Shown here: piece by piece, positions 11,904 to 51,634 of the stretch | Layout of the letters: every line of letters starts with the position of its first letter | Numbering within the stretch: position 1 is the first letter of the stretch | Origin: a virus | Taxonomy: Duplodnaviria > Caudoviricetes | Virus record (IMG/VR): IMGVR_UViG_3300021507_000132 | Location: 1 to 58,785 of that record | DNA length: 58,785 bases | Reading direction: 5' to 3' (one strand) | The notes under the pieces: model-generated | The model's input: the letters and a program-made list of their open reading frames with translations, nothing else | What the model was told of the DNA's origin: nothing | The model's database searches: none | Made by a program: the position numbers and the translations under genes

Positions 11904-13128
11904 CCTCATGAGCGGGAAGTCTCCTCCCTTCAAGAAGGGGATGAGAGCGAACCATAAATAATTTATAAATTTGGGTTATATAAATATTATGGTAACCAAA
12001 ATGAAAACAACATATAAATTCAGGTTATATCCAAAGAAAGAGCAAGAAGAAAAACTAATAAGAACACTTGATATATGCAGAGATTTATACAACTATTTGC
12101 TTTCAGAAACAAGGAAAAGGAAGATACATAGATATGAAATACAATCAATGTTGGTTTCTTTGAAAAAAGATAGGAGAGAATTAAACGAAGTTTATTCAAA
12201 GGTATTGCAGATGGTCGTATTTATGCTATCACACAACCTAAAAGTATTACACCGATTAAAGAAAAAAGGCAATAAGGTTGGTAAATTGAGATACAAAAAG
12301 AAGTTCAAGTCATTTATATACAATCAATCTGGTTTCAAAATCATAAAAACGGGTAAAAGATTGGATATATTGAGATTGTCAAAAATAGGGGATATACCAA
12401 TAAGATTACATAGAGATATAGAAGGAAACATAAAACAGACAATAATCAAGAGATACAAATCTGGCAAATGGTTTGCTCTCGTTTGTGTTGATGGTATGAA
12501 AAATAAGGAAAGCGAAAATAATAGAATTGTTGGTATTGATGTTGGTGTAAAATACTTCCTAACAGATAGCGATGGGAGACACATAGAAAATCCAAGATTT
12601 TATGAAAAACTATTGAATAGAATAAAAATAGAACAGAGAAAACTATCAAGAAAGAATAAGGGTTCTAAAAATTGGGAAAAACAGAGAAGAAAATTAGCAA
12701 AATTATTTGAAAAACTTGTAAATAAAAGAAACGATTTTCTACACAAACTATCTAAATTCTATGCTAAAAACTACAAAATCATTTGTGTCGAGGATTTGAA
12801 GATAAAGAACATGGTTAAAAATAGAAATCTTGCACAGAAAATACTTGATGTTTCTTGGGGTGTTTTTATAAGACTGCTATCCTACAAGGTTGAAAGAACT
12901 GGTGGGATGGTGGTTAAGGTAAATCCAAAAAACACCTCAAGAGAGTATAAATTTGGAAAACTTGATAGAGATTATAATGCCTCTCTGAATATAATGATGA
13001 GAGGTTTATCGGGGTTGGGACAACCCTTTGTGCCTGTGGAGATAACACCTCTACGGGAACTCAAGTTAGTTCCCGCAAGTGTCATTGTTGAAGCAGGAAG
13101 CCCCATCCTTTAGGTTAGGGTAGTTCAC
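11904..13128 (+). mobile_element. non-autonomous IS200/IS605-family (tnpB-only) element
   Basis: Left end after TTTAA with hairpin CTCCTCCCTTCAAGAAGGGGATGAG; right end GGAAGCCCCATCCTTTAGGTTAGGGTAGTTCAC; no tnpA. Confidence 0.8.
12001..13113 (+). CDS. tnpB: TnpB RNA-guided endonuclease (zinc ribbon deleted)
   Basis: TYKFRLYP N-terminus; RuvC motifs GIDVG, VEDL, DRDYNA; start could be 11989. Confidence 0.93.
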   Translation: MKTTYKFRLYPKKEQEEKLIRTLDICRDLYNYLLSETRKRKIHRYEIQSMLVSLKKDRRELNEVYSKVLQMVVFMLSHNLKVLHRLKKKGNKVGKLRYKKKFKSFIYNQSGFKIIKTGKRLDILRLSKIGDIPIRLHRDIEGNIKQTIIKRYKSGKWFALVCVDGMKNKESENNRIVGIDVGVKYFLTDSDGRHIENPRFYEKLLNRIKIEQRKLSRKNKGSKNWEKQRRKLAKLFEKLVNKRNDFLHKLSKFYAKNYKIICVEDLKIKNMVKNRNLAQKILDVSWGVFIRLLSYKVERTGGMVVKVNPKNTSREYKFGKLDRDYNASLNIMMRGLSGLGQPFVPVEITPLRELKLVPASVIVEAGSPIL

Positions 13129-13769
13129 CTTTTTCTGGCTTGTTCGCTTAAGCTTTGTGATTTGCTAAAAACATATGGCTCGCTTTGTTAGGTTGGGTTT
13201 CTAATTTTTTGTGACTCATTTTTCTCGCTTTTCTTTCCAGATTATTTTTTGTACTTCAGGCTCGCTCATAGTGTCTTCGGGCACCACTAGTTTTTCTTTT
13301 GAGAATGGCTCGCTCTCCTGCCATGGGTTCCCTAAACTTTAGAGGCTCGCTCTTTCTTTTTGGATCTACTGCTGGTGAATGGCTAAGTCGCTAAACTATA
13401 ATGGGTAATTTCCCTTTATATAGTTGGCTCGCTAAGCACTTTTGGTTTGACTTTTTCCCCGTTGGCTTTAATTCGCTTAAACTCCCAGAGTTTTTGTAAT
13501 CCTTCATAGCTGTTCGCTATTTTTAGGTGGTTTTCTTAAAGCGATTGGCTAATCGCTTCGTGTTTATGGGCTGCTAAATTATGATGGCTGAATTTTTACT
13601 CGCTTTATTTTTTGGGTATGACCTCATAATTATGGCTAGCTTTGGTTTTTAGGGTCTACTAAATATGTGTGGGCTGTAACTTCGCTTAGCTTCAGTGGTT
13701 TTGCTTTCTTTCCACATGGCTTAGAGTAGTTCGCTGGTCTTCTATGGTGAATTCTCTTTTTTAATGGCT
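13129..13769 (-). ncRNA. TIGR-like tandem guide RNA array 1 (~16 units)
   Basis: Minus-strand units AGCCA-N9-AG-(4-9 nt)-CCA-N9-AGCG directly downstream of the Nop-domain gene. Confidence 0.88.
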
Positions 13770-13820: not shown

Positions 13821-14696
13821 TTAAAACAAGCCGTCGGTTAGTGGCGGTTCATCAATATGTTGGTGATTCAGCTTTTCTTCCACGTACGGCGGTCTTATCG
13901 GCAAACCTTTTAGTTTTCTCGCAACGACATAGTAGTGAACCAGAAACCTTTTAACCATCTTTCGCATTGCTCTCCTGTGTATATGCAAAGGCTTCAATTT
14001 CAAATCTGTAACTCCATAGCTGTTAGGATATTTCGCATGAAGTTCTCCTGGTTTGAATTCCATTGCTTCCAATCTTTGTTTTTCTTTGTCATATATTTCC
14101 CGATAATAAGGCGTCCTTTGCTTTAGAAAACTGTCTCCGATCAACCAACTAACAACTTTAGCTCTTGGTCTGTATTGTGCTTTTTCTCCTCGCTTTCTTA
14201 CTCTTGCTTTTCCGTCTACAACGTCAAGACCTGCAAATTTCCATATGCTAGAGGGCGATTTTGCCTCCTCGCAATAACCGAAATTTCTAATCAAATTAAT
14301 TGCCAAGACCTTGGAAATTCCTCTAATTCTTTGTAACCACTGCCATATTGGTTCGTGAGCCAAGAACTCGTCCATTAATTTCAAGCATCTCTTTTCAAGT
14401 CTTTTGGTTTCGTGAGCAATCTGCGTAAATTCTTCTATAAAGCACTGCTCTTCTTTGCTTAATTTGCCTTGTTTTTTGACTATCTCTTTAAGTAGAAATT
14501 CAAGATTTTTGTCTATATATCTATTAATATATGCTTTGTCTTCTTTCCTGTCTTCTGGTATGTTCAACGGCAAATCCTCATATCTCCTTCTGATAAGGTT
14601 TCTGATTCTACTGAAGTTGGCTATCCTCGCTGCCTGGTGTCCGTAGTATACATTTGCTATTATTGTTGCCATTTCCACATTTGGTTTTGGTTCCAT
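13821..14696 (-). CDS. tasA: TIGR-associated Nop-domain protein, TasA-like (IS110-related RNA-binding domain, no nuclease domain)
   Basis: Coiled-coil YYGHQAARIA...; WLQRIRGISKVLA; SSIWKFAGL; YREIYDKEK; HRRAMRKMVKRFL; no DEDD RuvC or HNH domain; adjacent array. Confidence 0.85.
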   Translation of the reverse strand: MEPKPNVEMATIIANVYYGHQAARIANFSRIRNLIRRRYEDLPLNIPEDRKEDKAYINRYIDKNLEFLLKEIVKKQGKLSKEEQCFIEEFTQIAHETKRLEKRCLKLMDEFLAHEPIWQWLQRIRGISKVLAINLIRNFGYCEEAKSPSSIWKFAGLDVVDGKARVRKRGEKAQYRPRAKVVSWLIGDSFLKQRTPYYREIYDKEKQRLEAMEFKPGELHAKYPNSYGVTDLKLKPLHIHRRAMRKMVKRFLVHYYVVARKLKGLPIRPPYVEEKLNHQHIDEPPLTDGLF

Positions 14697-14763
14697 GCAT
14701 AATTAATGTTATTTTTATATTTATTGTTTTCTGTTCTTTATTATATATTTTAAAATAACTATT

Positions 14764-26758: not shown

Positions 26759-29182
26759 TTATATATTTATACTTTGTTTCAAAGCTTCAAAATTAAGACT
26801 TATGCCCAATAAAATATTTCTTTCTTCTTTTGTCAAATCAACAGCTTCCCATAATTTTTTGTAAGCTTCTGAACCGTACTCTGGACTAGCAGTCCAATTC
26901 ATTCTTCCAGATTTCTTTCTTCTCGCTATCTCTTTTAATATCTTTGTTGCTAATTGAATGATTTGTTCTTTAGTGAATTTGATTTTCTTGCCTTGCAGAA
27001 TTCTGGAGTAATAAGCTACTGCCAATCTAAAATCGTCAGCCAGTACTTCATTTTCCATGTTATGAGCATTGTAATTGTAAATGTCTTGTATCAACTCTAA
27101 AGTCCTGTGAAATTTGTAGTCTTCTTGATTTTTAACAGTAGTTGCGAAACTCCAGTTCTCTACAAAAGTCTGCGTTCCTTTAGGAACTGCTGCTGGTTTG
27201 GGCTCAGGAAAATGCTCTACCCACTCAAATTCATACGCATATAATTCATTTTTATCATCCCACCATTCTTTTCGTTCTGTTTCTGTTATTTTATGTTTTT
27301 CTCGGAGTTCTTCAAATTCTTTCAGACTTATTTTCTTGACATTTGTAAGTTTGATAATGCCATAACAAAACTCATTGTCCAACAAGTAAAGAGGTTTGTC
27401 TAACATATTTTTGTAGTTTCTTGACTTCACTATCAGTTTTTTTTCATTATTGTATATCATTTCTGCGTGTGGTTTAACTAAATATATGCCTGTTCTTCTG
27501 TTTTCTGCTAGTTGAACTGAATCCTTAGCAATCCATAACAAATCTGTATACTCTCTGACTTCAGGCCTGACGCTAGACGGCTGAGTTCCTCTACTTTTTC
27601 TTTTGAGTTTCTTTACTGTTACTTCCTTTTTGTGTTGCGATAATATTTTTTTATAATCAATATATGGTGAATCAGAAGTGCTAACCAATATTATTTTACA
27701 TTTTTTGGCCAGTTTTTCAATGAGTTCTGGAATCTTTTGTCTATCAAATTCAGGTATTACAAAATCTTTTTGCATTAAGATTGAATTTATATTTTTATAC
27801 TGATGAGCAGTATATGGAACTTCGTCTCCTTCTTTAATGTCATAAGGAGGATCCCAGTAAATAACCTCAACATTTGGAATCTCCAAATCAAAAATATCTT
27901 TGTTAGTAACTACTGCTTCTCCAGGTATTATTTTTTTGAGAATATCAGCATAACTGGCTTTGGCAAATTCAACAGCTGAGTGGACTGTCCATTTGTAAGG
28001 TCTAAATACTCCAAAACTGCCCATAAATCTTGTAAGCATGTCAGCACAAATAGCTAACAAAAAGTCTTTAACAGGATTTTTCTGATCATGAGCATAAGTA
28101 ACCAAACCGTCTATATATTTTCTTAATTCCACAGAACCAGGTCTTTTTAGATTTGATTTAGTAAGCCAGCCTTCAACAGGTTTAGCTTTTAAGAATTTCT
28201 CAAACTCTTCTTGAGGCAGTTTATAGTTGCCTAAAATTGCTTTAGAATAGTAATATGCTACAGGACTTATATCATTAACAATTACTTTAGCTCCTCTTTG
28301 TTTCATTCTCCAAGCTATAACAGAACTGCCAGTCATAGGATCAAAAAATGTTTTTGTATCTTTTGGAATTTCTGCTAGTATTTCGTCAGCATTCAATCTT
28401 TTGCTCCCAACATACCTAAAAAGTTCATAAATTTCTTGTAAATTTTCAATTACCATCCCATCATAAGCCAATCTTACATCAGTAGAAATTCCATGAAATT
28501 TACAATATTCATTTATTCTTTTCTGAGCTTTATAATGATCTGGGTAAGTTTTGCCTATTTGAGTTAAAATTGCTCTTTTAGGTTTGTATTTCTTAATTAG
28601 TTGTAACGCTTGTTCAGTATTCATATGCCCTCTTATCTTGCGATCAAAATACATAGCAGCATCAATTATCATTAAATCTACATTTTCAAAATATTTTTCA
28701 GACTCAGAAGGCACAGATTCCATGTCTTCAGCATATAAAACATCATTAAATCTAAAGCCTAAACAAGGGTACTTTTCGCCAGTAGGAAACGGCTCTGCAT
28801 GAATTACTCTAAAAGGTGTGAATTGAACACCAAGAACTTGAAATGGTTTTCCGGGTGTTATGTCATGTTCTTCTAATTCTAAAGTCTGCCAGATTTCATG
28901 AATTAAGTTGAAATTGTGTTTTAGTGTATAAACGGGTATCTTGCCAAATCTCTCAACAACTTTAGGCAAACCTTTTACGCAATCACTATGCATGTGTGTA
29001 ATTAAAACAGCATCTATTTTATCTATAGCATTCTTGAACAATTGTTCTTCTATCATTGGTGTAGCGTCTATAAGAATATTGCCTTTTTTTGTTTCTAGCA
29101 GCAGAGAGGAATTGCTCCTGTAATTTTTTCCTCTGCCTTTTACGGCTATGGCAGGACCCGTTCCTAGGAATACAAGATTCAT
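26759..29182 (-). CDS. multidomain protein: metallo-beta-lactamase (PhnP-like) + DNA adenine methyltransferase + ASCH-like + unknown domain
   Basis: FLGTG, LITHMHSDC; RYVGSK, FDPMTGS, YWDPPY; IYLVKPHAEMIYNNEKKLIVKS. Confidence 0.82.
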   Translation of the reverse strand: MNLVFLGTGPAIAVKGRGKNYRSNSSLLLETKKGNILIDATPMIEEQLFKNAIDKIDAVLITHMHSDCVKGLPKVVERFGKIPVYTLKHNFNLIHEIWQTLELEEHDITPGKPFQVLGVQFTPFRVIHAEPFPTGEKYPCLGFRFNDVLYAEDMESVPSESEKYFENVDLMIIDAAMYFDRKIRGHMNTEQALQLIKKYKPKRAILTQIGKTYPDHYKAQKRINEYCKFHGISTDVRLAYDGMVIENLQEIYELFRYVGSKRLNADEILAEIPKDTKTFFDPMTGSSVIAWRMKQRGAKVIVNDISPVAYYYSKAILGNYKLPQEEFEKFLKAKPVEGWLTKSNLKRPGSVELRKYIDGLVTYAHDQKNPVKDFLLAICADMLTRFMGSFGVFRPYKWTVHSAVEFAKASYADILKKIIPGEAVVTNKDIFDLEIPNVEVIYWDPPYDIKEGDEVPYTAHQYKNINSILMQKDFVIPEFDRQKIPELIEKLAKKCKIILVSTSDSPYIDYKKILSQHKKEVTVKKLKRKSRGTQPSSVRPEVREYTDLLWIAKDSVQLAENRRTGIYLVKPHAEMIYNNEKKLIVKSRNYKNMLDKPLYLLDNEFCYGIIKLTNVKKISLKEFEELREKHKITETERKEWWDDKNELYAYEFEWVEHFPEPKPAAVPKGTQTFVENWSFATTVKNQEDYKFHRTLELIQDIYNYNAHNMENEVLADDFRLAVAYYSRILQGKKIKFTKEQIIQLATKILKEIARRKKSGRMNWTASPEYGSEAYKKLWEAVDLTKEERNILLGISLNFEALKQSINI

Positions 29183-30321
29183 CCTATTTCCCCGGTTTTA
29201 TCTTTCTTGACATCCTTTTGGACGCCTTCAAGTATGTTTTCTATATCTGAGGGTTTGGGAACAATTTTGGGAGTTCTATGCCAGTTGCGAGATTTAGCCA
29301 ATCGTGCTAATATTTGAGTATTGAATTGATCTGCAAACAATTTTCTTCTAGCGTCATTAATCTTCATAAATATTTTTATCTGAGATACTAATGTAGATCT
29401 ATTGACGTCTTCGCCTCTCCCAGTTGCTATTGCTCCTGGCAAACCCATTCCAGTTATTTGTTGTTCTATGAAATAGTCTAAAAACTCTTTCAATTTTTCA
29501 ATTCTTGTAACTTTAAGAGTGTCTACTTTCATGTAATAAGGAATTGACAATTCTGTTTTGTAATTAAGATCTCGTATCATGTTTAAACCTGAATCAATCA
29601 TATCAGGAGTTGGTTGGTGGTCTTCGTCACCTACGCTCATAATTATTATAGGAAATCCTACTTTGTGTATTACATGAGATAAACCCATTTCAGCTTCATT
29701 TTTTCCTAAGGTAACAGAATATATTGGTTCTATTAACCCCAAACCATACCACCCATTACCAATCTTATCAAAATAGAATCTGGCAACTTGATCGTTTCGT
29801 AGAGGTATTCCTGTAACACCGCCAATAGTTACAAGTCTTCTTTGAACTGCAGGATCTAGCATTTGTTCAGTATTTACTGTTTGTAAGTAGCCTACAGGAT
29901 TTCCATAACTATCTAATTTTATTGCTCCCATATCTGTTTTCTGATAATCTATTGTTCTTGGATTCAAACTCACAACACCTATTAGTTTATTGTATTTGTA
30001 AACTAATTCACACCAAGCATCTCCGTATACAAACGCATCTCTGGCAATATCTCTTCTTAATTGCGGAAAATCAATACTATCCAAAAAGTCTTCAACTTCT
30101 TCTTTGATTTTGTTCGTAGGAGCTTCTATATCATAATCGCAATCAAACAATTGAACAGAAGTGTTTATAGCATTTCGAACTAAAGCGTCTGTCATGTATA
30201 TCCTTTCTGCTTCTGCTAAGTCCAGTCTTTTGAATTCAGGAATTGTAGTTTTGACTGATGAAGTTTTAAACTGCGTTGCTGGTTTTTCTTCCCGCAATAT
30301 ATACTTGTTTAATGGTATCAT
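29179..30321 (-). CDS. portal protein
   Basis: DAFVYGDAWCEL, WYGLGLIEP, GEDVNRST; follows terminase. Confidence 0.88.
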   Translation of the reverse strand: MIPLNKYILREEKPATQFKTSSVKTTIPEFKRLDLAEAERIYMTDALVRNAINTSVQLFDCDYDIEAPTNKIKEEVEDFLDSIDFPQLRRDIARDAFVYGDAWCELVYKYNKLIGVVSLNPRTIDYQKTDMGAIKLDSYGNPVGYLQTVNTEQMLDPAVQRRLVTIGGVTGIPLRNDQVARFYFDKIGNGWYGLGLIEPIYSVTLGKNEAEMGLSHVIHKVGFPIIIMSVGDEDHQPTPDMIDSGLNMIRDLNYKTELSIPYYMKVDTLKVTRIEKLKEFLDYFIEQQITGMGLPGAIATGRGEDVNRSTLVSQIKIFMKINDARRKLFADQFNTQILARLAKSRNWHRTPKIVPKPSDIENILEGVQKDVKKDKTGEIG

Positions 30322-30566
30322 CTTCTTCTTTTAATGTCTCGTACGAGTTCTACGAGTTCGTAACGAATAAAAAAGAGGACGTAGCCATAACCCAATACAC
30401 TAACATAATCGAACTTGCTGTTAAAGCAAGTCATTGCAAAACAATTAAATAGTGTTCCGGAAATTAAGATGTATGCTGCAGAAGCATAAACATATTTGGC
30501 ATTATCAGATTTTAGAAGTTTGGATAATTTAGTCCAAACCGAGTTGTTCTTTAAGCATTTCCACAT
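30318..30566 (-). CDS. small two-TM membrane protein
   Basis: Hydrophobic segments; likely start MWKCLK at 30566. Confidence 0.5.
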   Translation of the reverse strand: MWKCLKNNSVWTKLSKLLKSDNAKYVYASAAYILISGTLFNCFAMTCFNSKFDYVSVLGYGYVLFFIRYELVELVRDIKRRR

Positions 30567-31998
30567 GTTTTTCCCTCTGCTCAATATAACTTTTTTCAGC
30601 CCCATAATTAGATACATTATTATATATATTAACTTGTGAAGTTGCTCCATAAACAATACATGTCTTATATTTACAGGCAGCATAATAAGCTAAAGCTAAT
30701 GCTATAGCACAATCGTCGTGTCTTGTTTTGCTAACATATTTTCCATTAGTTATATCAATATATGAAAGTTCATGCAATAAAGTTTTCATTTTGAGTTCTG
30801 CTTCATTGTTGTAAGGTATCTTAATTTTCTGATCTTCAAAAGCTCTTTGTAATGAATGGAGAATCATTCCTCTTTTGTTTGGAGAAAAGTCAAAACCTAT
30901 TACTGGAAGTCCTCTGCTTTTCAGATTACTTATGAATGCATGACCAAACAAACTTCTATCTACTTCTATCCTTAGTGGCTTGAATCTTTCATACAATTCT
31001 TCCAGTTTTCTTTCCTGAATGTTTGGCGGAACACCCCTCATTCTTTCCATATGTGCTATAGCAAAACTGCCTTCGTCTTGTTGTTCAAGAACCATAAAGA
31101 CAGTATAGTCGCCCTTTCGTGATTCTGCTAAATCTACACCCACAAAATACTTTTTTGTTGTGTCTCCATATTCTAACAATCCTCTGTTGTGATCCAAACT
31201 TGATATAAGAACATCTGAAGGAAAAGCTCTGTCTTCGTCAGACATTAATTGTAGCAAATATTCTCTATTAAATCGAGGTTCTCCAATTGTTCTTTTTATG
31301 ACTTTCAGCCTAGAAATGGAATACCTTTCTGGCCATAAGGGTTTTCCGTCTTTAATAGCTGGATATTCCAAACTATAAAAATGAGGATTATTTTTCAATC
31401 TTGCTAATAGGTCATAACTTGTTTCTGGAGTGCCTATTGCTATGCATTTCCCTTTTTTAGCATATATTGTTGGCAAAACTGCTGACAAGAACATATCCAC
31501 TTCTTGTATCTGTCCGCACTCTTCAACTAAAAGATAATCCACTTGATAACCTCTCAAGTTGGGTGACAAACATTTGGAATAAAATACGCAGTGATTTGAA
31601 GTGTCTAATTTAGATTTAGTCCAAGTTCCAGACACACTTGTTGGCTTTAAGAATCTAAGCAGTCTGTTGTTTTCAACAGTATATCTGATTTTTTGCAAGA
31701 TTTCAAAAGCTCTGTCTTCAGTAGGTGATATGATTAAAAAAGTTTTATTGCTGTGATATGTTGCTATATACAAAGGCAATAAGACACCAAAAGTAAGTGT
31801 TTTTCCCGAACCTCTAGAAGCAGCAATAACAACATTCTGGTGTGTAAGTGCTGCGTCTATCCATTCTTCCTGAAATTTAGGTACTTTCAATTCTACGCCT
31901 TCAATTTCTTTTACGATATTCTCAACAAAATATTTGTAAGACAGACTGCCTTCCAGAAACATCTCCGTTGCTTTTTCCAAATCAATTGCTAATTTCAT
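30529..31998 (-). CDS. terL: terminase large subunit
   Basis: ASRGSGKT Walker A, LRG..VDYLLVEE Walker B, IGTP, GVDLA, HDDCAIALALA. Confidence 0.95.
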   Translation of the reverse strand: MKLAIDLEKATEMFLEGSLSYKYFVENIVKEIEGVELKVPKFQEEWIDAALTHQNVVIAASRGSGKTLTFGVLLPLYIATYHSNKTFLIISPTEDRAFEILQKIRYTVENNRLLRFLKPTSVSGTWTKSKLDTSNHCVFYSKCLSPNLRGYQVDYLLVEECGQIQEVDMFLSAVLPTIYAKKGKCIAIGTPETSYDLLARLKNNPHFYSLEYPAIKDGKPLWPERYSISRLKVIKRTIGEPRFNREYLLQLMSDEDRAFPSDVLISSLDHNRGLLEYGDTTKKYFVGVDLAESRKGDYTVFMVLEQQDEGSFAIAHMERMRGVPPNIQERKLEELYERFKPLRIEVDRSLFGHAFISNLKSRGLPVIGFDFSPNKRGMILHSLQRAFEDQKIKIPYNNEAELKMKTLLHELSYIDITNGKYVSKTRHDDCAIALALAYYAACKYKTCIVYGATSQVNIYNNVSNYGAEKSYIEQREKHVEMLKEQLGLD

Positions 31999-32131
31999 TG
32001 TATTTCTCCTCAATATCCAACAATATTTCTAACAGTTCCAACCACGAACTGGCTTTATACTTGACTTTAAGTTGTGCTAGTTTCCAATAAACTTGTTCTT
32101 TTTCCCGGTTGATATTTATATTCAGTCGCAT
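31982..32131 (-). CDS. small ribbon-helix-helix-like protein (49 aa, absent from ORF track)
   Basis: MRLNININREKEQVYWKLAQLKVKYKASSWLELLEILL: strand-helix-helix pattern; overlaps terminase start. Confidence 0.55.
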   Translation of the reverse strand: MRLNININREKEQVYWKLAQLKVKYKASSWLELLEILLDIEEKYNEISN

Positions 32132-32249: not shown

Positions 32250-32579
32250 ATGAGTAGTAAATATATGTATAGAAAAGGCTATGTAGGTGAATATTTGATT
32301 AAAAATAGGTTGATAAAAGAATATGGTAAAATAAATGTCCTGAAAATTGCAATATCGCAAGAAGGTTCTGATTTCATAGTTTTACAAAAAGGAAAGATTA
32401 TAAAAGTTGTGGAAGTCAAAGAAACCACTAAAGACAAGTATTATCCAAGTCAAAAAGAAAAAAGACAATTTGAAAGAATCAGGAGTTTTGCTAAAGAACA
32501 CAAAATACCTGCTGAATTATATATAGTATATAGAAAAGGCAGAGGCAAGAAGTCTGAAATTGTGAAAAAAGAATTATAA
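32250..32579 (+). CDS. hjc: archaeal-type Holliday junction resolvase
   Basis: YRKGYVGE...SDFIV...VEVK PD-(D/E)xK pattern. Confidence 0.8.
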   Translation: MSSKYMYRKGYVGEYLIKNRLIKEYGKINVLKIAISQEGSDFIVLQKGKIIKVVEVKETTKDKYYPSQKEKRQFERIRSFAKEHKIPAELYIVYRKGRGKKSEIVKKEL

Positions 32580-32681: not shown

Positions 32682-33611
32682 TTATAATTTCTGATTTTGT
32701 TTTTTGAATTTTTTTCCTATTTCTTGTCCAATTCTTTTTTTAACAGCTTTTTCCAGTTTTTTTAACATTTCACTATCAAAATCTCCTTTTACTTTTAGTC
32801 TTTCCATAAACCAATTTACAACTCTCGCAGTCTTTTTGCTTATGTCTTCTCTAGTGCCAATGCAAGCTCTTTCTACTAAATCAAGATATTCTTTAAATTC
32901 TTTGTCTGTGAATCCTGCCTTTAATCCAAGTTCTGGTTCTGCATAACCTTGTAATACATGATCTAATATCACGTTTTCTGGTCTGGATTTCGGAACTTTC
33001 TTTATCACTTTTTTAATCCTGTCTTTAAACTCTTCAGGACAATCTTCCCATTTGTATTTCAATATTTTATTTCCGTCTACGGATTTCAAAACTACACCTT
33101 CGCAATATTCTGGCAATTTTTTCATTTCCTTTTTCAGTTTTTTCAGATTGCTAAACAAACCAATATTTCCAATAAAGTTCAAATCAAAAGTCTTACAGAG
33201 ATTTTCAACGACTTCAGCATTCAAAAACCTTGTCTTTTCTGGTCTTCTCAAATTCATGATGTCAAAAACAAAATAGTCAAAATCTTTATCACCTTTATAA
33301 TTGCTCATTGTATTCTTGCCAACAACTTCCATTACAAGCACTAGATTGGGATAGACTCTGAAAAACCTTTCCAGTTTCTTGCCAATGTTTTCTCTTATTA
33401 GATTGTTGGTCTTTTCGTCAATTAAACCACCTCTCAAAAATGCCACCCAATCTTTATCTACTTTTGCTACTCTCACGTTGTAACCGTTAATCTTCTGTTG
33501 AGCAAACATTGGTTCTTCTAATTTCACTAAATGCAGTAATTTTGGATACGGAGGTATAATTGTGTCTCCCACTTTTACTCTCCCCAAACTGCTTATTATT
33601 TCTGCTCTCAT
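32682..33611 (-). CDS. ATP-dependent RNA ligase (archaeal Rnl3/Pab1020-like)
   Basis: QQKINGYNVRV, FLRGG, MEVVG, FVFDI, EGVVLK, ILKY. Confidence 0.82.
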   Translation of the reverse strand: MRAEIISSLGRVKVGDTIIPPYPKLLHLVKLEEPMFAQQKINGYNVRVAKVDKDWVAFLRGGLIDEKTNNLIRENIGKKLERFFRVYPNLVLVMEVVGKNTMSNYKGDKDFDYFVFDIMNLRRPEKTRFLNAEVVENLCKTFDLNFIGNIGLFSNLKKLKKEMKKLPEYCEGVVLKSVDGNKILKYKWEDCPEEFKDRIKKVIKKVPKSRPENVILDHVLQGYAEPELGLKAGFTDKEFKEYLDLVERACIGTREDISKKTARVVNWFMERLKVKGDFDSEMLKKLEKAVKKRIGQEIGKKFKKQNQKL

Positions 33612-34195
33612 TTTAATTCCAAACAATCACAAACTTTCCTAAGTCTGTAATAAAGATTAGGAATTTCGGCAGCAGAAAATCCATTCACGCTGTTTAACAA
33701 ATCAACAAATTCACTTTTGGTTTTGACAAGTCCTGCTTCTGCCATTGCCAAATACAAAATTGCCAAAGAAGTATACTTTGAATACAATAGAGAATATTTG
33801 CCTTGTTCTCTTATCAACTTCAAATAATAATTGGCTTTCCTTTTTACTTTGCCATTGCATTTTAACAATTTCTCATATTTTTTCAAAAACTCGTCAGCAG
33901 AAGCTGGTCTTACATTCAGATTTATTGTTTGTTTGATTTTTCTGCTCACTTTAGAAACTCGTCTGACGGGTGTATTTGCAATGCTGCTTAAATCCGAAAT
34001 TGCAACAGGATAATTCAAAGACCTTAAACCAACATACACCAATCCGCAAGCTATATCTTTAGTATCATGCAAAGCGATAAATTTTTCCTTAACAATTTTC
34101 TCATATAAATCTAATACTCTCTGCTTTTGTTTTTTATTGACTTCTAATGCTGCAAAAATATGTTCCAAATGTTCCAATATATTCTTGTTTCTCAT
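33608..34195 (-). CDS. TFB/TFIIB cyclin-repeat protein lacking the zinc ribbon
   Basis: ACGLVYVGLR..YPVAISDLS..LNVRPASADEFL..LAILYLA two cyclin-like repeats. Confidence 0.7.
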   Translation of the reverse strand: MRNKNILEHLEHIFAALEVNKKQKQRVLDLYEKIVKEKFIALHDTKDIACGLVYVGLRSLNYPVAISDLSSIANTPVRRVSKVSRKIKQTINLNVRPASADEFLKKYEKLLKCNGKVKRKANYYLKLIREQGKYSLLYSKYTSLAILYLAMAEAGLVKTKSEFVDLLNSVNGFSAAEIPNLYYRLRKVCDCLELK

Positions 34196-34250
34196 TCATA
34201 ATATTACTTAATTTTATATTTATAGTTTTCTGTTGTCTAATATATACTAT

Positions 34251-34451
34251 TCAGAGCATATGACCTACTATCACTGAAAAAAGTGTAATAACAATTCCTG
34301 CAAGCAAATACCATAAACGACTATCCAATTTATCCATTTTCTTTTTCACATATTTCATATCTGTCTTAAGAGATCCTAATTCTCCATTTATTGTAGCAAT
34401 GTGTTTCCACACTTCTTCTAATTTATAACTCTTTCGTGTCATTATTAACAT
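34251..34451 (-). CDS. small coiled-coil + C-terminal TM protein (holin/XhlA-like)
   Basis: LKTDMKYVKKKMDKLDSRLWYLLAGIVITLF. Confidence 0.55.
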   Translation of the reverse strand: MLIMTRKSYKLEEVWKHIATINGELGSLKTDMKYVKKKMDKLDSRLWYLLAGIVITLFSVIVGHML

Positions 34452-34595
34452 AAGTGTTTATTGTATTTATGGCAAGTCAAACAAATCTCCTATGTTTGAG
34501 CTGTAAAAGACATTATGACAGTACTTGTCCTGGTTGGGTAGAAGACATAACTGTTGCTGGGAAAGCTTGTAAGTACTATATTAAAAAAGATTCTC

Positions 34596-35393
34596 ATGAT
34601 GTTCAACAACAACACTTGTAAAGTCTTGCTAGGAGACTGTTTGGAGCTAATGAAAGAATTGAAAGATGAATCTATAGACATGATTTTAACAGATCCTCCT
34701 TATATGATTTCAAGAGAAGCGAAAATTGCCAGAAGCAGAAATCCTCTCAAGAGAAGGATGAAATATCAAGGCAAAGACATTTCCATGATGTTTGGAGAAT
34801 GGGATATTTTTGAAACTGAAGACCAATACTGGAAGTTCATATATGCTGCATTGAAACAGTTTAAAAGGATACTGAAAATAGGAGGTCATATGCTTATCTT
34901 CTTTGATAGGTTCAAAATTACGCCATTAGTGGAATGGTGCAGAAAGAATGATTTTATAGCAAGGCAGCCATTATGGTGGTTAAAGAGTAATCCAGTTCCA
35001 ATGGCAAAGAAAGTTTCTTTTATGAGTGCTCATGAATTGATTTTCTGGGCAACAAAGCATACCACTTCTAGAAAATACTCTACATTTCACTACGAACTTG
35101 GACAACATCCAGACTATTTCGTTCATTGTATTCCGCCAAAAAAATCAAAATCAGATGGAATAAGACAACACCCTTGCCAAAAACCAGTAAAATTAATGGA
35201 ATGGCTTATATCATATCTTTCAAACGAAAACGATACAATATTAGATCCGTTTGCAGGTTCTGGCACTACTGGCGTTGCTGCTATAAACTTGAACAGAAAA
35301 TGCATCCTTATTGAAAAATCTCCGCATTATTACAGTGTAATAATTTCCAGACTAAAACCTCTTTTGTCCCAAAGAAATTTAAATAATATTTAA
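34596..35393 (+). CDS. DNA methyltransferase (beta class, N4C/N6A)
   Basis: LTDPPY, HPCQKP, LDPFAGSGTT. Confidence 0.93.
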   Translation: MMFNNNTCKVLLGDCLELMKELKDESIDMILTDPPYMISREAKIARSRNPLKRRMKYQGKDISMMFGEWDIFETEDQYWKFIYAALKQFKRILKIGGHMLIFFDRFKITPLVEWCRKNDFIARQPLWWLKSNPVPMAKKVSFMSAHELIFWATKHTTSRKYSTFHYELGQHPDYFVHCIPPKKSKSDGIRQHPCQKPVKLMEWLISYLSNENDTILDPFAGSGTTGVAAINLNRKCILIEKSPHYYSVIISRLKPLLSQRNLNNI

Positions 35394-35415
35394 ATATTTA
35401 AATGTTATATATATA

Positions 35416-35607
35416 ATGGAGGAAAGCACTGTAAAACGAACAGGAACAGGATTGCACATTCTAGTCAGCAAAAAGAAATTTAAAGAAGGAGAGTCTGTGG
35501 TAGTACTTACTGCTAAAGAATACAAAGAACTGAAAGAAAAAGAAGAAGTTATAAAACTGATAAACGAAAAAGTAGACGAGTTAATAAATAAACTGCATAA
35601 ATATTGA
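35416..35607 (+). CDS. small DUF2080/AbrB-like protein
   Basis: VKRTGTGLHILVSKK..GESVVV; immediately precedes array 2. Confidence 0.55.
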   Translation: MEESTVKRTGTGLHILVSKKKFKEGESVVVLTAKEYKELKEKEEVIKLINEKVDELINKLHKY

Positions 35608-35613
35608 TTATGG

Positions 35614-36609
35614 AGCCTCTTTCTGCAAGAAAAACCTGCAAGAGATAGCGAGCCATAAAAAAATAGAAATCCTAAGAAAGTGAGCGAAAACAGCCAAATA
35701 AAGTAAGTAAAACGCCCTTTGGCTCATAGCGAAACAGCCAAAATACAAGAGAAAAACCCTTAAAAGTATAGCGAAATAAACAGCCATAAGATGAAAGCTA
35801 AACCTTAAAATCATAGCGGCAGCCATAAGATGAAAGAAAAGAACCATTAAAGCTTAGCGAGCCTAGTTCACACAGAAAAACCATGTGGAGATAGCAGCCA
35901 CACAAAAGAAGCAAACCTTGTTTAAAAAGCGAATTAGCCACCAATTAACAGAAATCCCAAGAAAGTTGAGCGAGCCTAAAGTCTTCAGACTACCAGAAAG
36001 AGCGAGCGAGCCATCAAGATAGAGTATACCCTTTGGCTAATAGCGGTTAGCCATGTTGAAGAAGCAAACCTTGGTTCTCTAGCATTAGTAGCAAAAAGAG
36101 CGAGCCAAAACCTACAAAGCCAAAAATAGTTAATGAACCTTATAAAATTAGCGAGCCAAAAATGAAGAACAAACTCTGAAACTTCCAGCGAATCTTTGTA
36201 TAGCTGGTATTTAAGAGAAAACTCATAAAAGTATAGCGTTAGCCAATGAAATAAAGAAACCCTAAGATAGATTGCGAGCCATATGAATTGAGAAACCCAT
36301 AATAATCTAGCGTTAGCAGCCAATGAAACCTAGAATCACCTTACTGCAGAAGCGAGCCTGAGAATACAAACAAGCACATAAACTTTGAGCGTGACAGCCT
36401 TATATATATAGCAAAACCCAAGTAACTTGAGCGAGCCAAAAATATCAAGGTGCCCATGAAAGTTGAGCGTGCCTTTGGTTCTTAGCAAACCCAAAAGCAA
36501 AAAGCGAGCCTGGTTTGCATAGCAAACCATAAAATTAAAGCGAGCAACTTAAAGCGACCACTACAAATAAGCGAGTCATATAACTATTGTCACCCATTTA
36601 ACACAAGCG
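35614..36609 (+). ncRNA. TIGR-like tandem guide RNA array 2 (~25 units), orphan
   Basis: Units AGCC(A/T)-N9-AG-(4-7 nt)-CC(A/T)-N9-AGCG, e.g. AGCCA-TATGAATTG-AGAAACCCA-TAATAATCT-AGCG. Confidence 0.9.
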
Positions 36610-36621
36610 AAAATCCCAATA

Positions 36622-37470
36622 CTACTCAAAAATTATCTCAAAATGATCTTCGCCTCTCAAATCTCTTTGTTCTATGCCAACTTTCTTTTTAATCACAGGT
36701 AAGAATTCAGGATTCAACTCTATCCCAATACAATTCCTTCTCAATTCTTTAGCCACTTTCATTGTGGTTCCAGAACCAAGAAAAGGATCCAGAACCCAAT
36801 CACCTTCAAATCCCAGTTCCGGCACAGCAGCAAAAGAAAACATTTTAATAATTCTGGCAGGCAATTCTTCAGGAAACATAGCAATATGTTCTTTCTGTCT
36901 TATCCCCGGAAATTTCCAATGTCCAGTAAAACATTTCCTCCAATCTTCCAAACTCAATTTTGATTCGTCTTTAATTCTCTTATCCAATTTCCTGCTTTTC
37001 CCAGGTTTCTTAAATATCAACACAAATTCATAATCATATTCCACAATCCCGTTCCTAGGATAAGGAAAAGAACCCATAACACTTGCTCCTCCACTGGGAT
37101 TGACATTTCCAACTTTCTGCCATATAATCCCACCCATATAATCAAATCCGATTTTCTCGCATTCCAGAACCAAATTTGCCTGAACCGGTAAAACTTTATA
37201 CCTGCCCAAAACAGGACTGGTATTATAGACGTCGCCAACATTGATAACAAGCCGACAACCAGATTCCAGAACTCTATAACATTCTTTCCACACAATATTC
37301 AGATCTTCAATATACTTCTCAAAAGAACTGCTAAATCCGATTTGATTCTCAATTCCATAATCTTTAATATGAGCATAAGGAGGAGAAGTAACAATTAATT
37401 GAACAGAATTATCAGGCAACCATTTTCTCATATTCCTCGCGTCTCCAATAATTATTTTATATTCGCACAT
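36622..37470 (-). CDS. DNA methyltransferase (beta class, likely N4C)
   Basis: VTSPPY, HIAMFPEEL, LDPFLGSGTT; likely start MCEYKII. Confidence 0.93.
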   Translation of the reverse strand: MCEYKIIIGDARNMRKWLPDNSVQLIVTSPPYAHIKDYGIENQIGFSSSFEKYIEDLNIVWKECYRVLESGCRLVINVGDVYNTSPVLGRYKVLPVQANLVLECEKIGFDYMGGIIWQKVGNVNPSGGASVMGSFPYPRNGIVEYDYEFVLIFKKPGKSRKLDKRIKDESKLSLEDWRKCFTGHWKFPGIRQKEHIAMFPEELPARIIKMFSFAAVPELGFEGDWVLDPFLGSGTTMKVAKELRRNCIGIELNPEFLPVIKKKVGIEQRDLRGEDHFEIIFE

Positions 37471-37474
37471 AATT

Positions 37475-37822
37475 ATGATAAGCACAAAAAACATAATACT
37501 AGTTGCTGTGTTTGTTTTTACAATTTTAATAGGAATTACCAGCGTATATTTGATTGTAAATACAAACTTGTCCAAATACGTGCCGTTAGGATATAAAACC
37601 ATAACCATGGATGGAATAGACAAATATGAAGAAATATCTAGTGATGTTCCTGTTATATTGGTTGTTGAAGGAATTGGCAATATAATAAAAATAAAGGACA
37701 ATACTGAAGTGAAAAAGATAAAAATTAGTGGAATAGATATTGTTATATACCTTCCTTTAGATTGTTATCCTGAAATAGAAGATGATGGCATTGATACAAA
37801 AATAATACATATAAGTAATTAA
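37475..37822 (+). CDS. membrane-anchored small beta-solenoid-like protein
   Basis: N-terminal TM; repeated GID/GIG units. Confidence 0.55.
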   Translation: MISTKNIILVAVFVFTILIGITSVYLIVNTNLSKYVPLGYKTITMDGIDKYEEISSDVPVILVVEGIGNIIKIKDNTEVKKIKISGIDIVIYLPLDCYPEIEDDGIDTKIIHISN

Positions 37823-37880
37823 ATGTAATGCTTTGTAATCTTTTAGTATTATGTTGTGCTACTTTGTGATACTGTTATTT

Positions 37881-38032
37881 TTGTTATAGTATATTCTTAT
37901 TTTCATTTATTGTTATAGTATGTATGGGTTGTAGTATTTGTTATAGTATATGTGGGTTGGCGTGTGTTTATGTGTGTATTGGTGTATTGGTATATTGTTA
38001 TTTTGTTATTTTTGTTATAGTATATGTGGGTT
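37881..38032 (+). repeat. iteron-like direct repeats TTGTTATAGTA (x4) at start of long AT-rich non-coding region
   Basis: Copies at 37881, 37910, 37938, 38012; TTTGTTATAGTATATGTGGGTT exact twice. Confidence 0.7.
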
Positions 38033-38601
38033 AGCACCTCACTCCATATCTCATTTCTCTCCGTGAAACTATATTTTCCAGTATATAAATCACAAAATAT
38101 ATTTTCTACAATATAAATCTCTAAATTTTGTATTTATCTCTAAAATACTCCAAAAATATGAGCATATATAACATTTATTATATGTTTTGCATTATATATT
38201 TTTTATTGCATTTGTCAGATTTCCTAGGTCTAGAATATATAATGGATTATATACAACTGAGAATATAAAACAAATAAGAATTTATTTTTATTATTCTAAA
38301 ATAAAAAATCTAAATTTTTGGGTTTTTATATGGATTTTCTTAAAAATATGAAGATTTATATTCTTGATAATATAAAAATTGTATTCTTGATTATATATTT
38401 TGGATAATATAAAAAAATCTAATTTGTTAATATTCTCTTAATACTCTAAAAATTTTATGTCTTATTTTTGGATATTTCTTTTATTTTATATTTTTTGATT
38501 TATATTTTTTGCAACAGAAAACTATATATATTAATTATGTTTATTTTTATTATCTTATCCCATCCCATCCTAGTGGATGGGGTTGGATAAGATTTCCAAA
38601 T

Positions 38602-47499: not shown

Positions 47500-48240
47500 A
47501 TGTCGTGGGAAATAGATAATGAAGATAAATTAGTAAGCGAAAAGTGTCCAGAAATGGAAAAAGAAGGCAAAGAAGTTGTGTTAGAAAATAATGTAGTTGG
47601 CAAAATAATCACATTGTTGAACAAGTATCCAGATTTGGAATGGGGTGCGTATTTGATTGGTGAAGAACAAAAAGACAAATTTTTGATTAAAGATTTGACA
47701 TTAATGAAGCAAGAAGTAACTGGAACAACAGTAGAATTTGTAGAAGAGGATTTTCCAAAGAATTGCATTGGCTGGATTCATAGTCATAATTCAATGGACG
47801 CATTTCTGTCAAAAACAGATGTAAAAACAGCAATGCTGTATAAAGTGTCAATAGTAGTAAATAATGCTTTGAATTTTGTTTGCAGAGTTAAAAAGCAATT
47901 GCCTTGCGGCAGAGTTACTTTAGTGCCTTCAAAAGTAATATTACAAGGCATAGATGTTGATACAAGCAAAATTGTTGAAAAACCAAAGAAAGAATCTATT
48001 GTAATAGTAGACCAGTCATTTCAAAATATTTGTCCAGTTTGCGGTTGCAAATTGAGCAGAAGAAAGAGCAAATTGGCTTATTGTCCTCATTGTCGCAATT
48101 TTGTTCATAGGAGGTGTTTTAATGAAGAGTGGAATATGTGTGCTAACTGCGTAGAAATGTTTAGCAAAGATGAAAAAGAAAGATCTAGAGATTTGTGGAG
48201 AGAGTATTTTAATGAAGATTATCTTGACTTCTACTATTAA
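47500..48240 (+). CDS. JAB/JAMM metalloprotease fused to C4HC3 RING-like finger
   Basis: LEWGAYLIG, GWIHSHNSMDAFLSKTD; CPVC..CPHC....H..C..CANC. Confidence 0.85.
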   Translation: MSWEIDNEDKLVSEKCPEMEKEGKEVVLENNVVGKIITLLNKYPDLEWGAYLIGEEQKDKFLIKDLTLMKQEVTGTTVEFVEEDFPKNCIGWIHSHNSMDAFLSKTDVKTAMLYKVSIVVNNALNFVCRVKKQLPCGRVTLVPSKVILQGIDVDTSKIVEKPKKESIVIVDQSFQNICPVCGCKLSRRKSKLAYCPHCRNFVHRRCFNEEWNMCANCVEMFSKDEKERSRDLWREYFNEDYLDFYY

Positions 48241-48245
48241 AGAGT

Positions 48246-48821
48246 ATGGAAAAAATTGTAATAATAGGTTGTGGTGGTGTGGGAAGCAGAATTGCTGAGT
48301 TTTTAGTCAGAGACAATTTAAGAGAAAAATTCATGGACATGCTTTATTTAGTAGATCATGATACTGTTGAGTTTAAAAATCTGCAAAGACAATTCTATTT
48401 TCAGCAAGACATTAATTTCAAAAAAACAGAAGCTTTAAAAGCCAGATTAAAGAGCATAGACCCAGATTTGGTAATAGTTACTCACAATATACAAGTAAAC
48501 AAAGACAATATAGCGTTGTTTGACAGCAAAATGTTTTGTTTTTGTTGCACTGACGACATTAATGGGAAAAGAGCGATTTCAGAGCATTTTGAGAATTATA
48601 TAATAGCAAGCGTTGATAGAGATGTTGTTGAAATTACTGTAAATCCTGGGTATTTAAATGTCTGGTCTTTTGGAACAGGTTATTCAGTTTATCAAGATGT
48701 TGTAAATAACAATATGGCAGCTATGATTGCGTTTAAATTGTTTAAAAATTATTTGAATGGTATGGAATTGAAAAATGTAAAACTAAATATAAAAGAATTA
48801 ATTGAAAGGTCTATTTCGTAA
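48246..48821 (+). CDS. ThiF/E1-like adenylyltransferase
   Basis: IIGCGGVGS, VDHDTVEFKNLQRQ, KTEAL, CCTD. Confidence 0.9.
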   Translation: MEKIVIIGCGGVGSRIAEFLVRDNLREKFMDMLYLVDHDTVEFKNLQRQFYFQQDINFKKTEALKARLKSIDPDLVIVTHNIQVNKDNIALFDSKMFCFCCTDDINGKRAISEHFENYIIASVDRDVVEITVNPGYLNVWSFGTGYSVYQDVVNNNMAAMIAFKLFKNYLNGMELKNVKLNIKELIERSIS

Positions 48822-51378: not shown

Positions 51379-51634
51379 ACGAAGCAGATAGACAAACATT
51401 GGTAGTGATATTAAGCGAAATCAGAAAAGAACTGGAAAAAGCTAAGAAGTTCCATGACAGGACAGACATGTTAGTATATATTGACTTTGCTCTTTCAGAC
51501 GTTAGAAAAGGTTTGGCTTTCTTGAACAAATTAAAAAAATAGTCAATTGAATATATATTTTAGACAACAGAAAACTATTTATATATAAATATTATTTATA
51601 TTTATGGCAAGAAAGTTCGTAATGGTGATTCAGA

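Follow-up and report, generated by a model that had tools for sequence, protein, structure and literature searches.

The provirus record IMGVR_UViG_3300021507_000132 of IMG/VR (58,785 bases, 33% G+C) was analysed over its whole length, hereafter the window. It carries two arrays of tandem interspaced guide RNAs (TIGR), together with one gene for a TIGR-associated protein, tasA (Table 1). TIGR arrays are built of edge and loop repeats separated by 9-nt spacers, both repeats starting with box D (UG in TaTIGR) and ending with box C (CCA); as described, the box motifs are free to diverge, covarying between edge and loop, and truncated edge repeats bound the arrays (Faure 2025, PMC12045711). Array 1 adjoins tasA. 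Array 2 is a genuine dual-repeat TIGR array placed far from the effector gene: from the start of tasA (14696) to the first letter of array 2 (35614) the distance is 20.9 kb, and the two stand on opposite strands. Dual-repeat TIGR arrays are described as lying next to tas; for array 2 the nearest and only tas lies at this distance.

Array 2 was delimited by cutting 35614–36609 (+) at every AGCC-like start, which gave 26 tandem segments. A unit was taken as well formed if it read AGCC-W-N9-AG(1–8 nt)CC-W-N9-AGCG, no motif having more than one substitution; 21 of the 26 segments do, each with two alternating repeats (edge and loop) and two spacers of about 9 nt. Every spacer in such a unit has box C (CCW) before it and box D (AG) after it, the edge repeat reading AGCG/AGCC and the loop repeat being A-rich. 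The array opens with a 5'-truncated edge (AGCC only) and closes with a 3'-truncated edge (AGCG only). Loops measure 8–12 nt and linkers of 2–11 nt follow some units, with start-to-start spacings of 31–54 nt plus one of 15 nt at a half unit. An earlier sequence-only reading had described about 25 plus-strand units with this AGCC/AG..CC/AGCG grammar, and the parse bears it out.

In its strict form the pattern is confined to the two arrays. Scanning the whole record with a strict form, GCCW-N9-AG-N3-8-CCW-N9-AGCG, returned 16 matches on the plus strand, all within 35615–36542, and 5 on the minus strand, all within 13311–13768, while the same pattern read backward as a control returned none on either strand. 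The shorter element AGCCW-N9-AG occurs 29 times (18 in array 2, 7 in array 1, 4 elsewhere), against 10.35 ± 3.30 in 100 dinucleotide shuffles (largest 21). A relaxed unit scan of the window placed 28 overlapping matches within array 2, 12 within array 1 and 8 outside both; since a shuffled window yields about 10, there are no extra solo units beyond chance.

Comparison of the units of the two arrays, which the sequence-only reading had proposed as a check, revealed common edge motifs, box D, spacer length and loose build. Edge and loop repeats open with AG and close with CCW in both. Array 1, with about 16 segments by our own reading of the sequence, is at least as irregular as array 2, 9 of its segments being well formed and its linkers reaching 11 nt. 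In the loop box C the arrays differ: array 2 has CCT in 11 units and CCA in 10, array 1 has CCA in each of the 9 units parsed. On the sense strand each array is rich in A and poor in T (A 42–43%, T 17–19%), despite their opposite genome strands. No exact spacer is common to arrays 1 and 2. Spacer pairs differing by at most two letters number 24 in the window, against 9.3 ± 3.0 in 500 shuffles (maximum 21); most lie inside array 2 and include one exact duplicate in neighbouring units. The figure of about 40 guides given earlier is fair as a count of segments (~16 + 26 = ~42), of which the strict parse passes only 9 + 21. Pairing of spacers A and B within a unit was considered and rejected: the longest stem averaged 2.8, while spacers with shuffled partners averaged 2.59 ± 0.14 and reached 2.8 in 7.7% of shuffles.

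The product of tasA is 291 aa long. A phmmer search of the PDB matched TaTasR (9mty, E = 1.6e-28, residues 79–285) and SpTasH (21kl, E = 4.6e-19), the alignment to TasR beginning at residue 79, which corresponds to TasR residue 135. The protein also matches phrog_4285 (E = 1.6e-44); the Pfam Nop model gave no match at E ≤ 1. A structure model built from an 11-sequence alignment had a predicted local distance difference test (pLDDT) score of 80.1, and the top 10 listed Foldseek matches were all TasR or TasH chains with probability 1.00, the next below them being IS621-type bridge recombinases. Residues 1–120 are all helical in this model, and a Pfam scan of the protein found no RuvC or HNH family. 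The Tas matches, the helices-only N-terminus and the absence of RuvC/HNH identify the protein as a TasA. Its C-terminal residues Y271 and H278 align with Y289 and H296 of SpTasH, named as the catalytic residues that cut pre-tigRNA (PMC13421893); all 11 aligned homologues have both. A tblastn search of the window with TasA returned only itself, the next best hit having E = 1.3, in agreement with the earlier statement that a single TasA is encoded about 21 kb from array 2 and that no Tas gene lies near the array.

Array 2 is maintained in contigs from other studies, with changes on the scale of units. Contigs of four other runs were compared over 33600–37800. Contig X2 is identical to the record across this region; X3 and X4, from different studies, have flanks about 5–10% different and an array at the same locus. 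In X3, 40 other letters stand in place of 124 nt (35697–35820, roughly three units; joint side 113); with a retained AGCCA they build a single unit whose boxes are the same and whose spacers are new. Both X3 (side 161) and X4 (side 25, weak) replace 48 nt by 13 letters, yielding one unit in which spacer A of the left unit is kept and spacer B is new, and X4 has 90 letters in place of 81 nt (side 106). Joints found at a likeness below 95 can stem from other organisms, an origin that the long joint sides make unlikely for X3. We infer that array 2 changes by duplication and whole-unit replacement. Searches for further relatives found none by genome-contig scans with TasA and with the terminase; a terminase cluster look-up (Atlas) gave generic viral clusters only, a metagenome-contig scan with a 22-base junction word gave one unrelated contig without an array, a viral-contig scan with the upstream methylase gave distant methylases only (30–51% identity), and phage-database blastn of 34000–38500 matched only a 62-nt methylase stretch.

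Distal arrays also occur in other viral genomes. The edge pattern is present in at least 120 IMG/VR stretches, from which 30 records were taken, favouring contigs with several array loci. A tas match was found in 28 of the 30, in one place each, and among the 19 records with fully readable unit positions, six carry clusters of at least two units more than 10 kb, and up to 50 kb, from tas. These are G019 (25 units on the opposite strand, 22 kb from tas, and another 5 at 18 kb), G003 and G004, both rated 100% complete (9 units at 18.5 kb and 5 units at 11 kb, respectively), G005 (several clusters, reaching as far as 50 kb), G013 (3 units, 38 kb) and G002 (two clusters of 2 units, 16–17 kb). Record G007, rated 100% complete with one tas match, has an array 8 kb from tas. 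In those genomes the distal and the tas-adjacent arrays carry the same genome-specific loop repeat. Whole units are identical between arrays of one genome (positions 12111 and 16739 in G019; 32180 and 39784 in G002), and single spacers are common to proximal and distal arrays; these sequence identities suggest that units move between arrays of one genome. These genomes are phages of 60% G+C, so the distal arrangement is not tied to the present virus group. Two records with units of the same grammar, G009 (26 units) and G016 (6 units; rated 100% complete, with terminal repeats), gave no tas match with the present TasA at E ≤ 0.001, and their arrays may be true orphans or be accompanied by a very divergent Tas.

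Array 2 appears to have a promoter of its own. The ATAAATA core that precedes it (Table 1) also ends 22–23 nt before the start codon in 7 of 31 open reading frames (ORFs) examined, tasA included. Its density is 0.43 per kb per strand, and by our arithmetic the chance of finding it in a 7-nt window at the right distance is about 0.3%. A fixed TATA-to-start spacing is expected of archaeal TATA boxes with leaderless mRNAs. Many genes of the record lack a Shine-Dalgarno sequence, and a sigma-70 promoter scan stayed at background (23 found, 19.5 expected). The five public runs that hold the stretch are of vent and sediment origin; this origin, the fixed-spacing TATA cores and the Hjc-like and TFIIB-like matches point to a probable archaeal host. 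Array 2 would then be transcribed on the plus strand, with a start at or just before unit 1. Such a transcript also fits the lack of any run of five or more T on the plus strand over 34808–36685 and the A-rich, T-poor composition of both sense strands. A 23-nt promoter-like motif upstream of tasA recurs at 34212–34234 (−), upstream of the TFIIB-like gene, and at 38513–38535 (+) and 51566–51588 (+), at plus-strand gene blocks; the record holds 4 matches, and 100 shuffles held 0. This motif is absent at array 2, so array 2 and tasA may be regulated separately. A different motif, TTGATATAAATAC, precedes several structural genes, and the two motifs suggest two temporal promoter classes.

Array 2 is probably a working array with its own promoter, supplying RNAs that the single TasA would cut and take up in trans. 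This reading draws on the box motifs and loose build shared by the two arrays, the Y/H residues of TasA, the TATA core, the persistence of the locus with unit swaps, and the distal arrays of single-tas records. Use in trans had been proposed in the sequence-only reading; it stands as the best-supported prediction. In the predicted pathway, transcription on the plus strand would begin from the archaeal-type promoter (TATA core 35584–35590), followed by binding of TasA dimers to box C/D of edge and loop repeats in the precursor and cutting at the edge repeats. This would free guides of about 36–40 nt, with linkers removed or kept as short tails. TasA is described as an RNA-guided repressor that binds without cutting and represses transcription (Xu 2026, 10.64898/2026.09.09.750476), and like other TasA proteins the guide-loaded protein would silence DNA by binding, leaving it uncut. 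The site is expected to read spacer A and then spacer B in reverse complement, an order that we derived from the 3' overhangs left by TasR cuts as described in Faure 2025 (PMC12045711).

Several observations weigh against a working array used in trans. Dual-repeat tigRNAs are described as uniformly 36 nt (Xu 2026, 10.64898/2026.09.09.750476), and array 2 is irregular: start-to-start spacing is 36 nt in 6 and 37 nt in 4 of the 25 cases, because loop length varies and linkers separate some units. Five of the 26 segments are degenerate or truncated (starts 36103, a half unit, 36154, 36200, 36355 and 36543). The promoter assignment presupposes the inferred archaeal host. No intrinsic-terminator-like site follows array 2 on the plus strand, and the first T5 past the array lies at 36686, 77 nt beyond the last unit; oligo-T would suffice as a terminator only if the host is archaeal. 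None of the five holder runs is an RNA run. The record is rated 78% complete, so that a second Tas gene could sit in the missing part. The choice of the 30 records was biased, so 6 of 19 is not a frequency, and the relative G001 (TasA 83% identical) stops short of the matching region and is unusable as a test. For the predicted site order, 18-bp targets in the window numbered 0 with at most two mismatches and 8 with three, and three control spacer orders gave 0–2 and 9–10; in 138 fetched loci (1.25 Mb) all four orders scored alike. With no provirus site above the controls, self-regulation by perfect matches is unlikely, and since this provirus holds none, the targets would presumably be genes of the host or competing mobile elements.

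The irregular build, together with the missing terminator-like site and the lack of targets in the window and in the 1.25 Mb of loci, would also suit a decaying, non-functional copy, either a relic of an old tas locus or an unused duplicate of array 1; in such a copy the degenerate segments, linkers and variable loops that break the 36-nt period would be marks of decay. We consider this unlikely. All four motifs are kept in the 21 well-formed units, and array 1, beside tasA, is no more regular, so that irregularity reads as the style of this virus and not as a sign of decay. The TATA core has the spacing seen at genes of this virus, contigs from other studies retain the locus, and the replacement in X3 is again a well-formed unit. 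The absence of a common exact spacer further indicates that array 2 did not arise by recent copying of array 1. Three ORFs of 64–112 codons cross the region on the minus strand, the nominal unit length, 36 nt, is divisible by three, and an AT-rich repeat region, a possible origin, lies 1.2 kb away at 37.8–38.5 kb, as might be expected if the region were a repetitive protein-coding gene or a set of replication or partition iterons. Unit lengths of 31–54 nt break any reading frame, for which reason the coding reading was rejected; interruptions break up the minus-strand ORFs, which match nothing in Pfam below E = 0.1, the conserved positions are the box C/D positions of TIGR units with variable N9 stretches between them, and the same grammar recurs next to tasA, both in this virus and in the other tested viral records. 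That the region is no guide array at all is therefore extremely improbable.

There is also a slim chance that array 2 serves another effector, be it a second Tas encoded in the portion that the record lacks or the Tas of a co-infecting rival, for which the array would supply hijacking or decoy guides. The incompleteness of the record leaves room for this, the mixed CCT/CCA loop box C of array 2 departs from the uniform CCA of array 1, and G009 and G016 hold arrays without a detected tas; standalone guides of the VIPR system are described as redirecting another element's effector (10.64898/2026.10.15.759431). The two arrays are nevertheless the same in edge motifs, box D, spacer length and loose build, nothing resembling a second Tas was found in the window, and distal arrays also occur in records rated complete with a single tas, more than 10 kb away in G003 and G004 and 8 kb away in G007. 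Use of array 2 by the resident TasA can be extended, with considerable doubt, to a general, as yet uncatalogued layer of dispersed arrays with their own promoters, in which one Tas might serve several guide sets located in separate transcription units and the repertoire might change in the course of infection; the unit swaps would then reflect spacer gain by recombination at box motifs, not by a Cas1-like integrase.

Table 1 Features of arrays 1 and 2, tasA and their surroundings in the window.
Feature	Positions	Strand	Description
TIGR array 1	13130..13769	-	~16 segments (9 well formed), directly downstream of tasA
Three T tracts, then TATA-like TTATTATAA	13792..13816	-	sense-strand T tracts of 9, 7 and 7; past the tasA stop and before array 1
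tasA	13821..14696	-	nuclease-free Tas (Nop-type) of 291 aa; only Tas in the record
23-nt promoter-like motif	14713..14735	-	upstream of tasA
Hjc-type resolvase-like protein	32250-32579	+	21.7 bits against 21.1 bits
TFIIB-like protein	33608-34195	-	Pfam 23.5 bits against cut-off 23.6
N6/N4 DNA methylase	34554..35393	+	N6_N4 Pfam family; likely true start at an ATG pair near 34596
63-codon ORF	35416..35607	+	putative gene directly upstream of array 2; 3' end holds the predicted array promoter
ATAAATA, TATA-like core	35584..35590	+	ends 24 nt before unit 1; predicted array 2 promoter
Second ATAAATA copy	35597-35603	+	ends 11 nt before unit 1
TIGR array 2	35614..36609	+	26 tandem segments, 21 well-formed dual-spacer units
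N6/N4 DNA methylase	36622..37701	-	N6_N4 Pfam family; convergent with array 2

The virus places array 2 in a small cluster between a minus-strand structural block, headed by terminase (30529–32013) and portal (29179–30321) genes and containing tasA and array 1, and plus-strand genes starting near 38.5 kb. This cluster comprises an RNA ligase, the TFIIB-like gene, two N6/N4 DNA methylases and the 63-codon ORF. The two methylases are convergent and flank array 2, as the sequence-only reading had stated. Its label of AbrB/DUF2080 for the small upstream gene finds no support: the 63-codon ORF gave no such Pfam match even at E ≤ 10, its only homologues are a 98%-identical cluster with no wider family, and its model is a low-confidence hairpin plus helix. 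We considered whether distal arrays and DNA methylases are regularly associated and rejected the idea. The 10 ORFs flanking distal arrays in four other phages comprise one FkbM methyltransferase, one terminase, one DUF2213 protein and seven without a family, and with one methyltransferase of another family among them the methylase flanks look coincidental. In G019 (L151), an FkbM-type methyltransferase gene (4168–4950) lies 8 nt past the 25-unit distal array (3076–4160). That guides lying between two DNA methylases steer or shield methylation is a bolder idea, much less likely than the general layer of dispersed arrays considered above.

Between the tasA stop and array 1, the T tracts and the TATA-like TTATTATAA may be a terminator plus a separate array 1 promoter. 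A TnpB gene (11971–13113, +), with OrfB_IS605, HTH and Cas12f1-like TNB domains (Pfam), converges on the far end of array 1, its stop lying 17–30 nt from the last units. The relative G001 has a 7-unit array and no TnpB at that place, indicating that a second RNA-guided protein landed beside the TIGR locus. Elsewhere in the record, an 807-aa protein (26759–29182, −) between the portal and structural genes joins a metallo-beta-lactamase fold domain to a D12-class adenine methyltransferase, and a JAB/MPN peptidase gene adjoins a ThiF/E1-like gene (47500–48821, +), a ubiquitin-like conjugation pair in a virus. A 147-nt tandem repeat of 2.8 copies (5978–6392) lies inside a 1577-codon ORF. The AT-rich intergenic stretch at 37800–38510, between the minus- and plus-strand gene blocks, contains several tandem repeats of 23–28 nt and may be an origin. 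Transfer RNA and Rfam scans of the window found nothing.

TIGR-Tas systems have been known only since 2025, and their natural targets, biological role and spacer gain are stated as open (Faure 2025, PMC12045711; Xu 2026, 10.64898/2026.09.09.750476). Surveys have been centred on tas, with a radius of 5 kb in Faure 2025 (PMC12045711) and of up to 10 kb (median 5.4 kb) in the Xu 2026 preprint (10.64898/2026.09.09.750476). Catalogues limited to 5–10 kb around tas would miss arrays such as array 2, leaving guide counts and target searches incomplete; in this virus array 2 holds 26 of the ~42 guide segments. The terms 'orphan' and 'in trans' are applied to arrays in the text of neither paper, whose supplementary tables may list such arrays, and a literature search for such terms returned nothing on TIGR. 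A distal array with its own promoter allows separate regulation of guides and protein, and natural variants differing by whole units are material for working out spacer turnover.

Among known systems, array 2 and TasA come closest to dual-repeat TIGR-TasA, as described for FpTIGR of Flavonifractor plautii (PMC12045711). They have in common the alternation of edge and loop repeats, two 9-nt spacers, box C/D in both repeats, truncated edges at the array ends, a nuclease-free Nop-type effector and a viral carrier. The arrays described there lie upstream of, downstream of or inside tas, whereas array 2 is 20.9 kb off on the other strand; box D is AG instead of UG and box C is CCA or CCU, and in array 2 the loops vary and linkers are present, giving a period of 36–46 nt where the described one is constant at 36. 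SpTIGR-TasH of Salicola phage CGphi29 (21kl, 9w04; PMC13421893) resembles the present system in its Nop domain (E = 4.6e-19) and in Y289/H296, the counterparts of Y271/H278; it differs in that this TasA has no HNH, that SpTIGR spacers total 16 nt, and that processing by TasA is a prediction.

A guide array far from its effector, with matching repeats and presumably used in trans, recalls orphan or isolated CRISPR arrays served by a distant cas operon, from which TIGR differs in RNA architecture, protein family and targeting mode (two half-sites on opposite strands). To our knowledge, no adaptation genes are known for TIGR. The orphan or solo vrRNAs of VIPR are likewise described as virus-borne guides that lie away from or without an effector and are used in competition between mobile elements (10.64898/2026.10.15.759431); VIPR is an unrelated system, with GGYNN repeats and a pseudoknot tail, and array 2 has its effector in the same genome. 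Array 2 is thus a known system, in an arrangement that lies outside the reach of the tas-centred surveys (≤10 kb).

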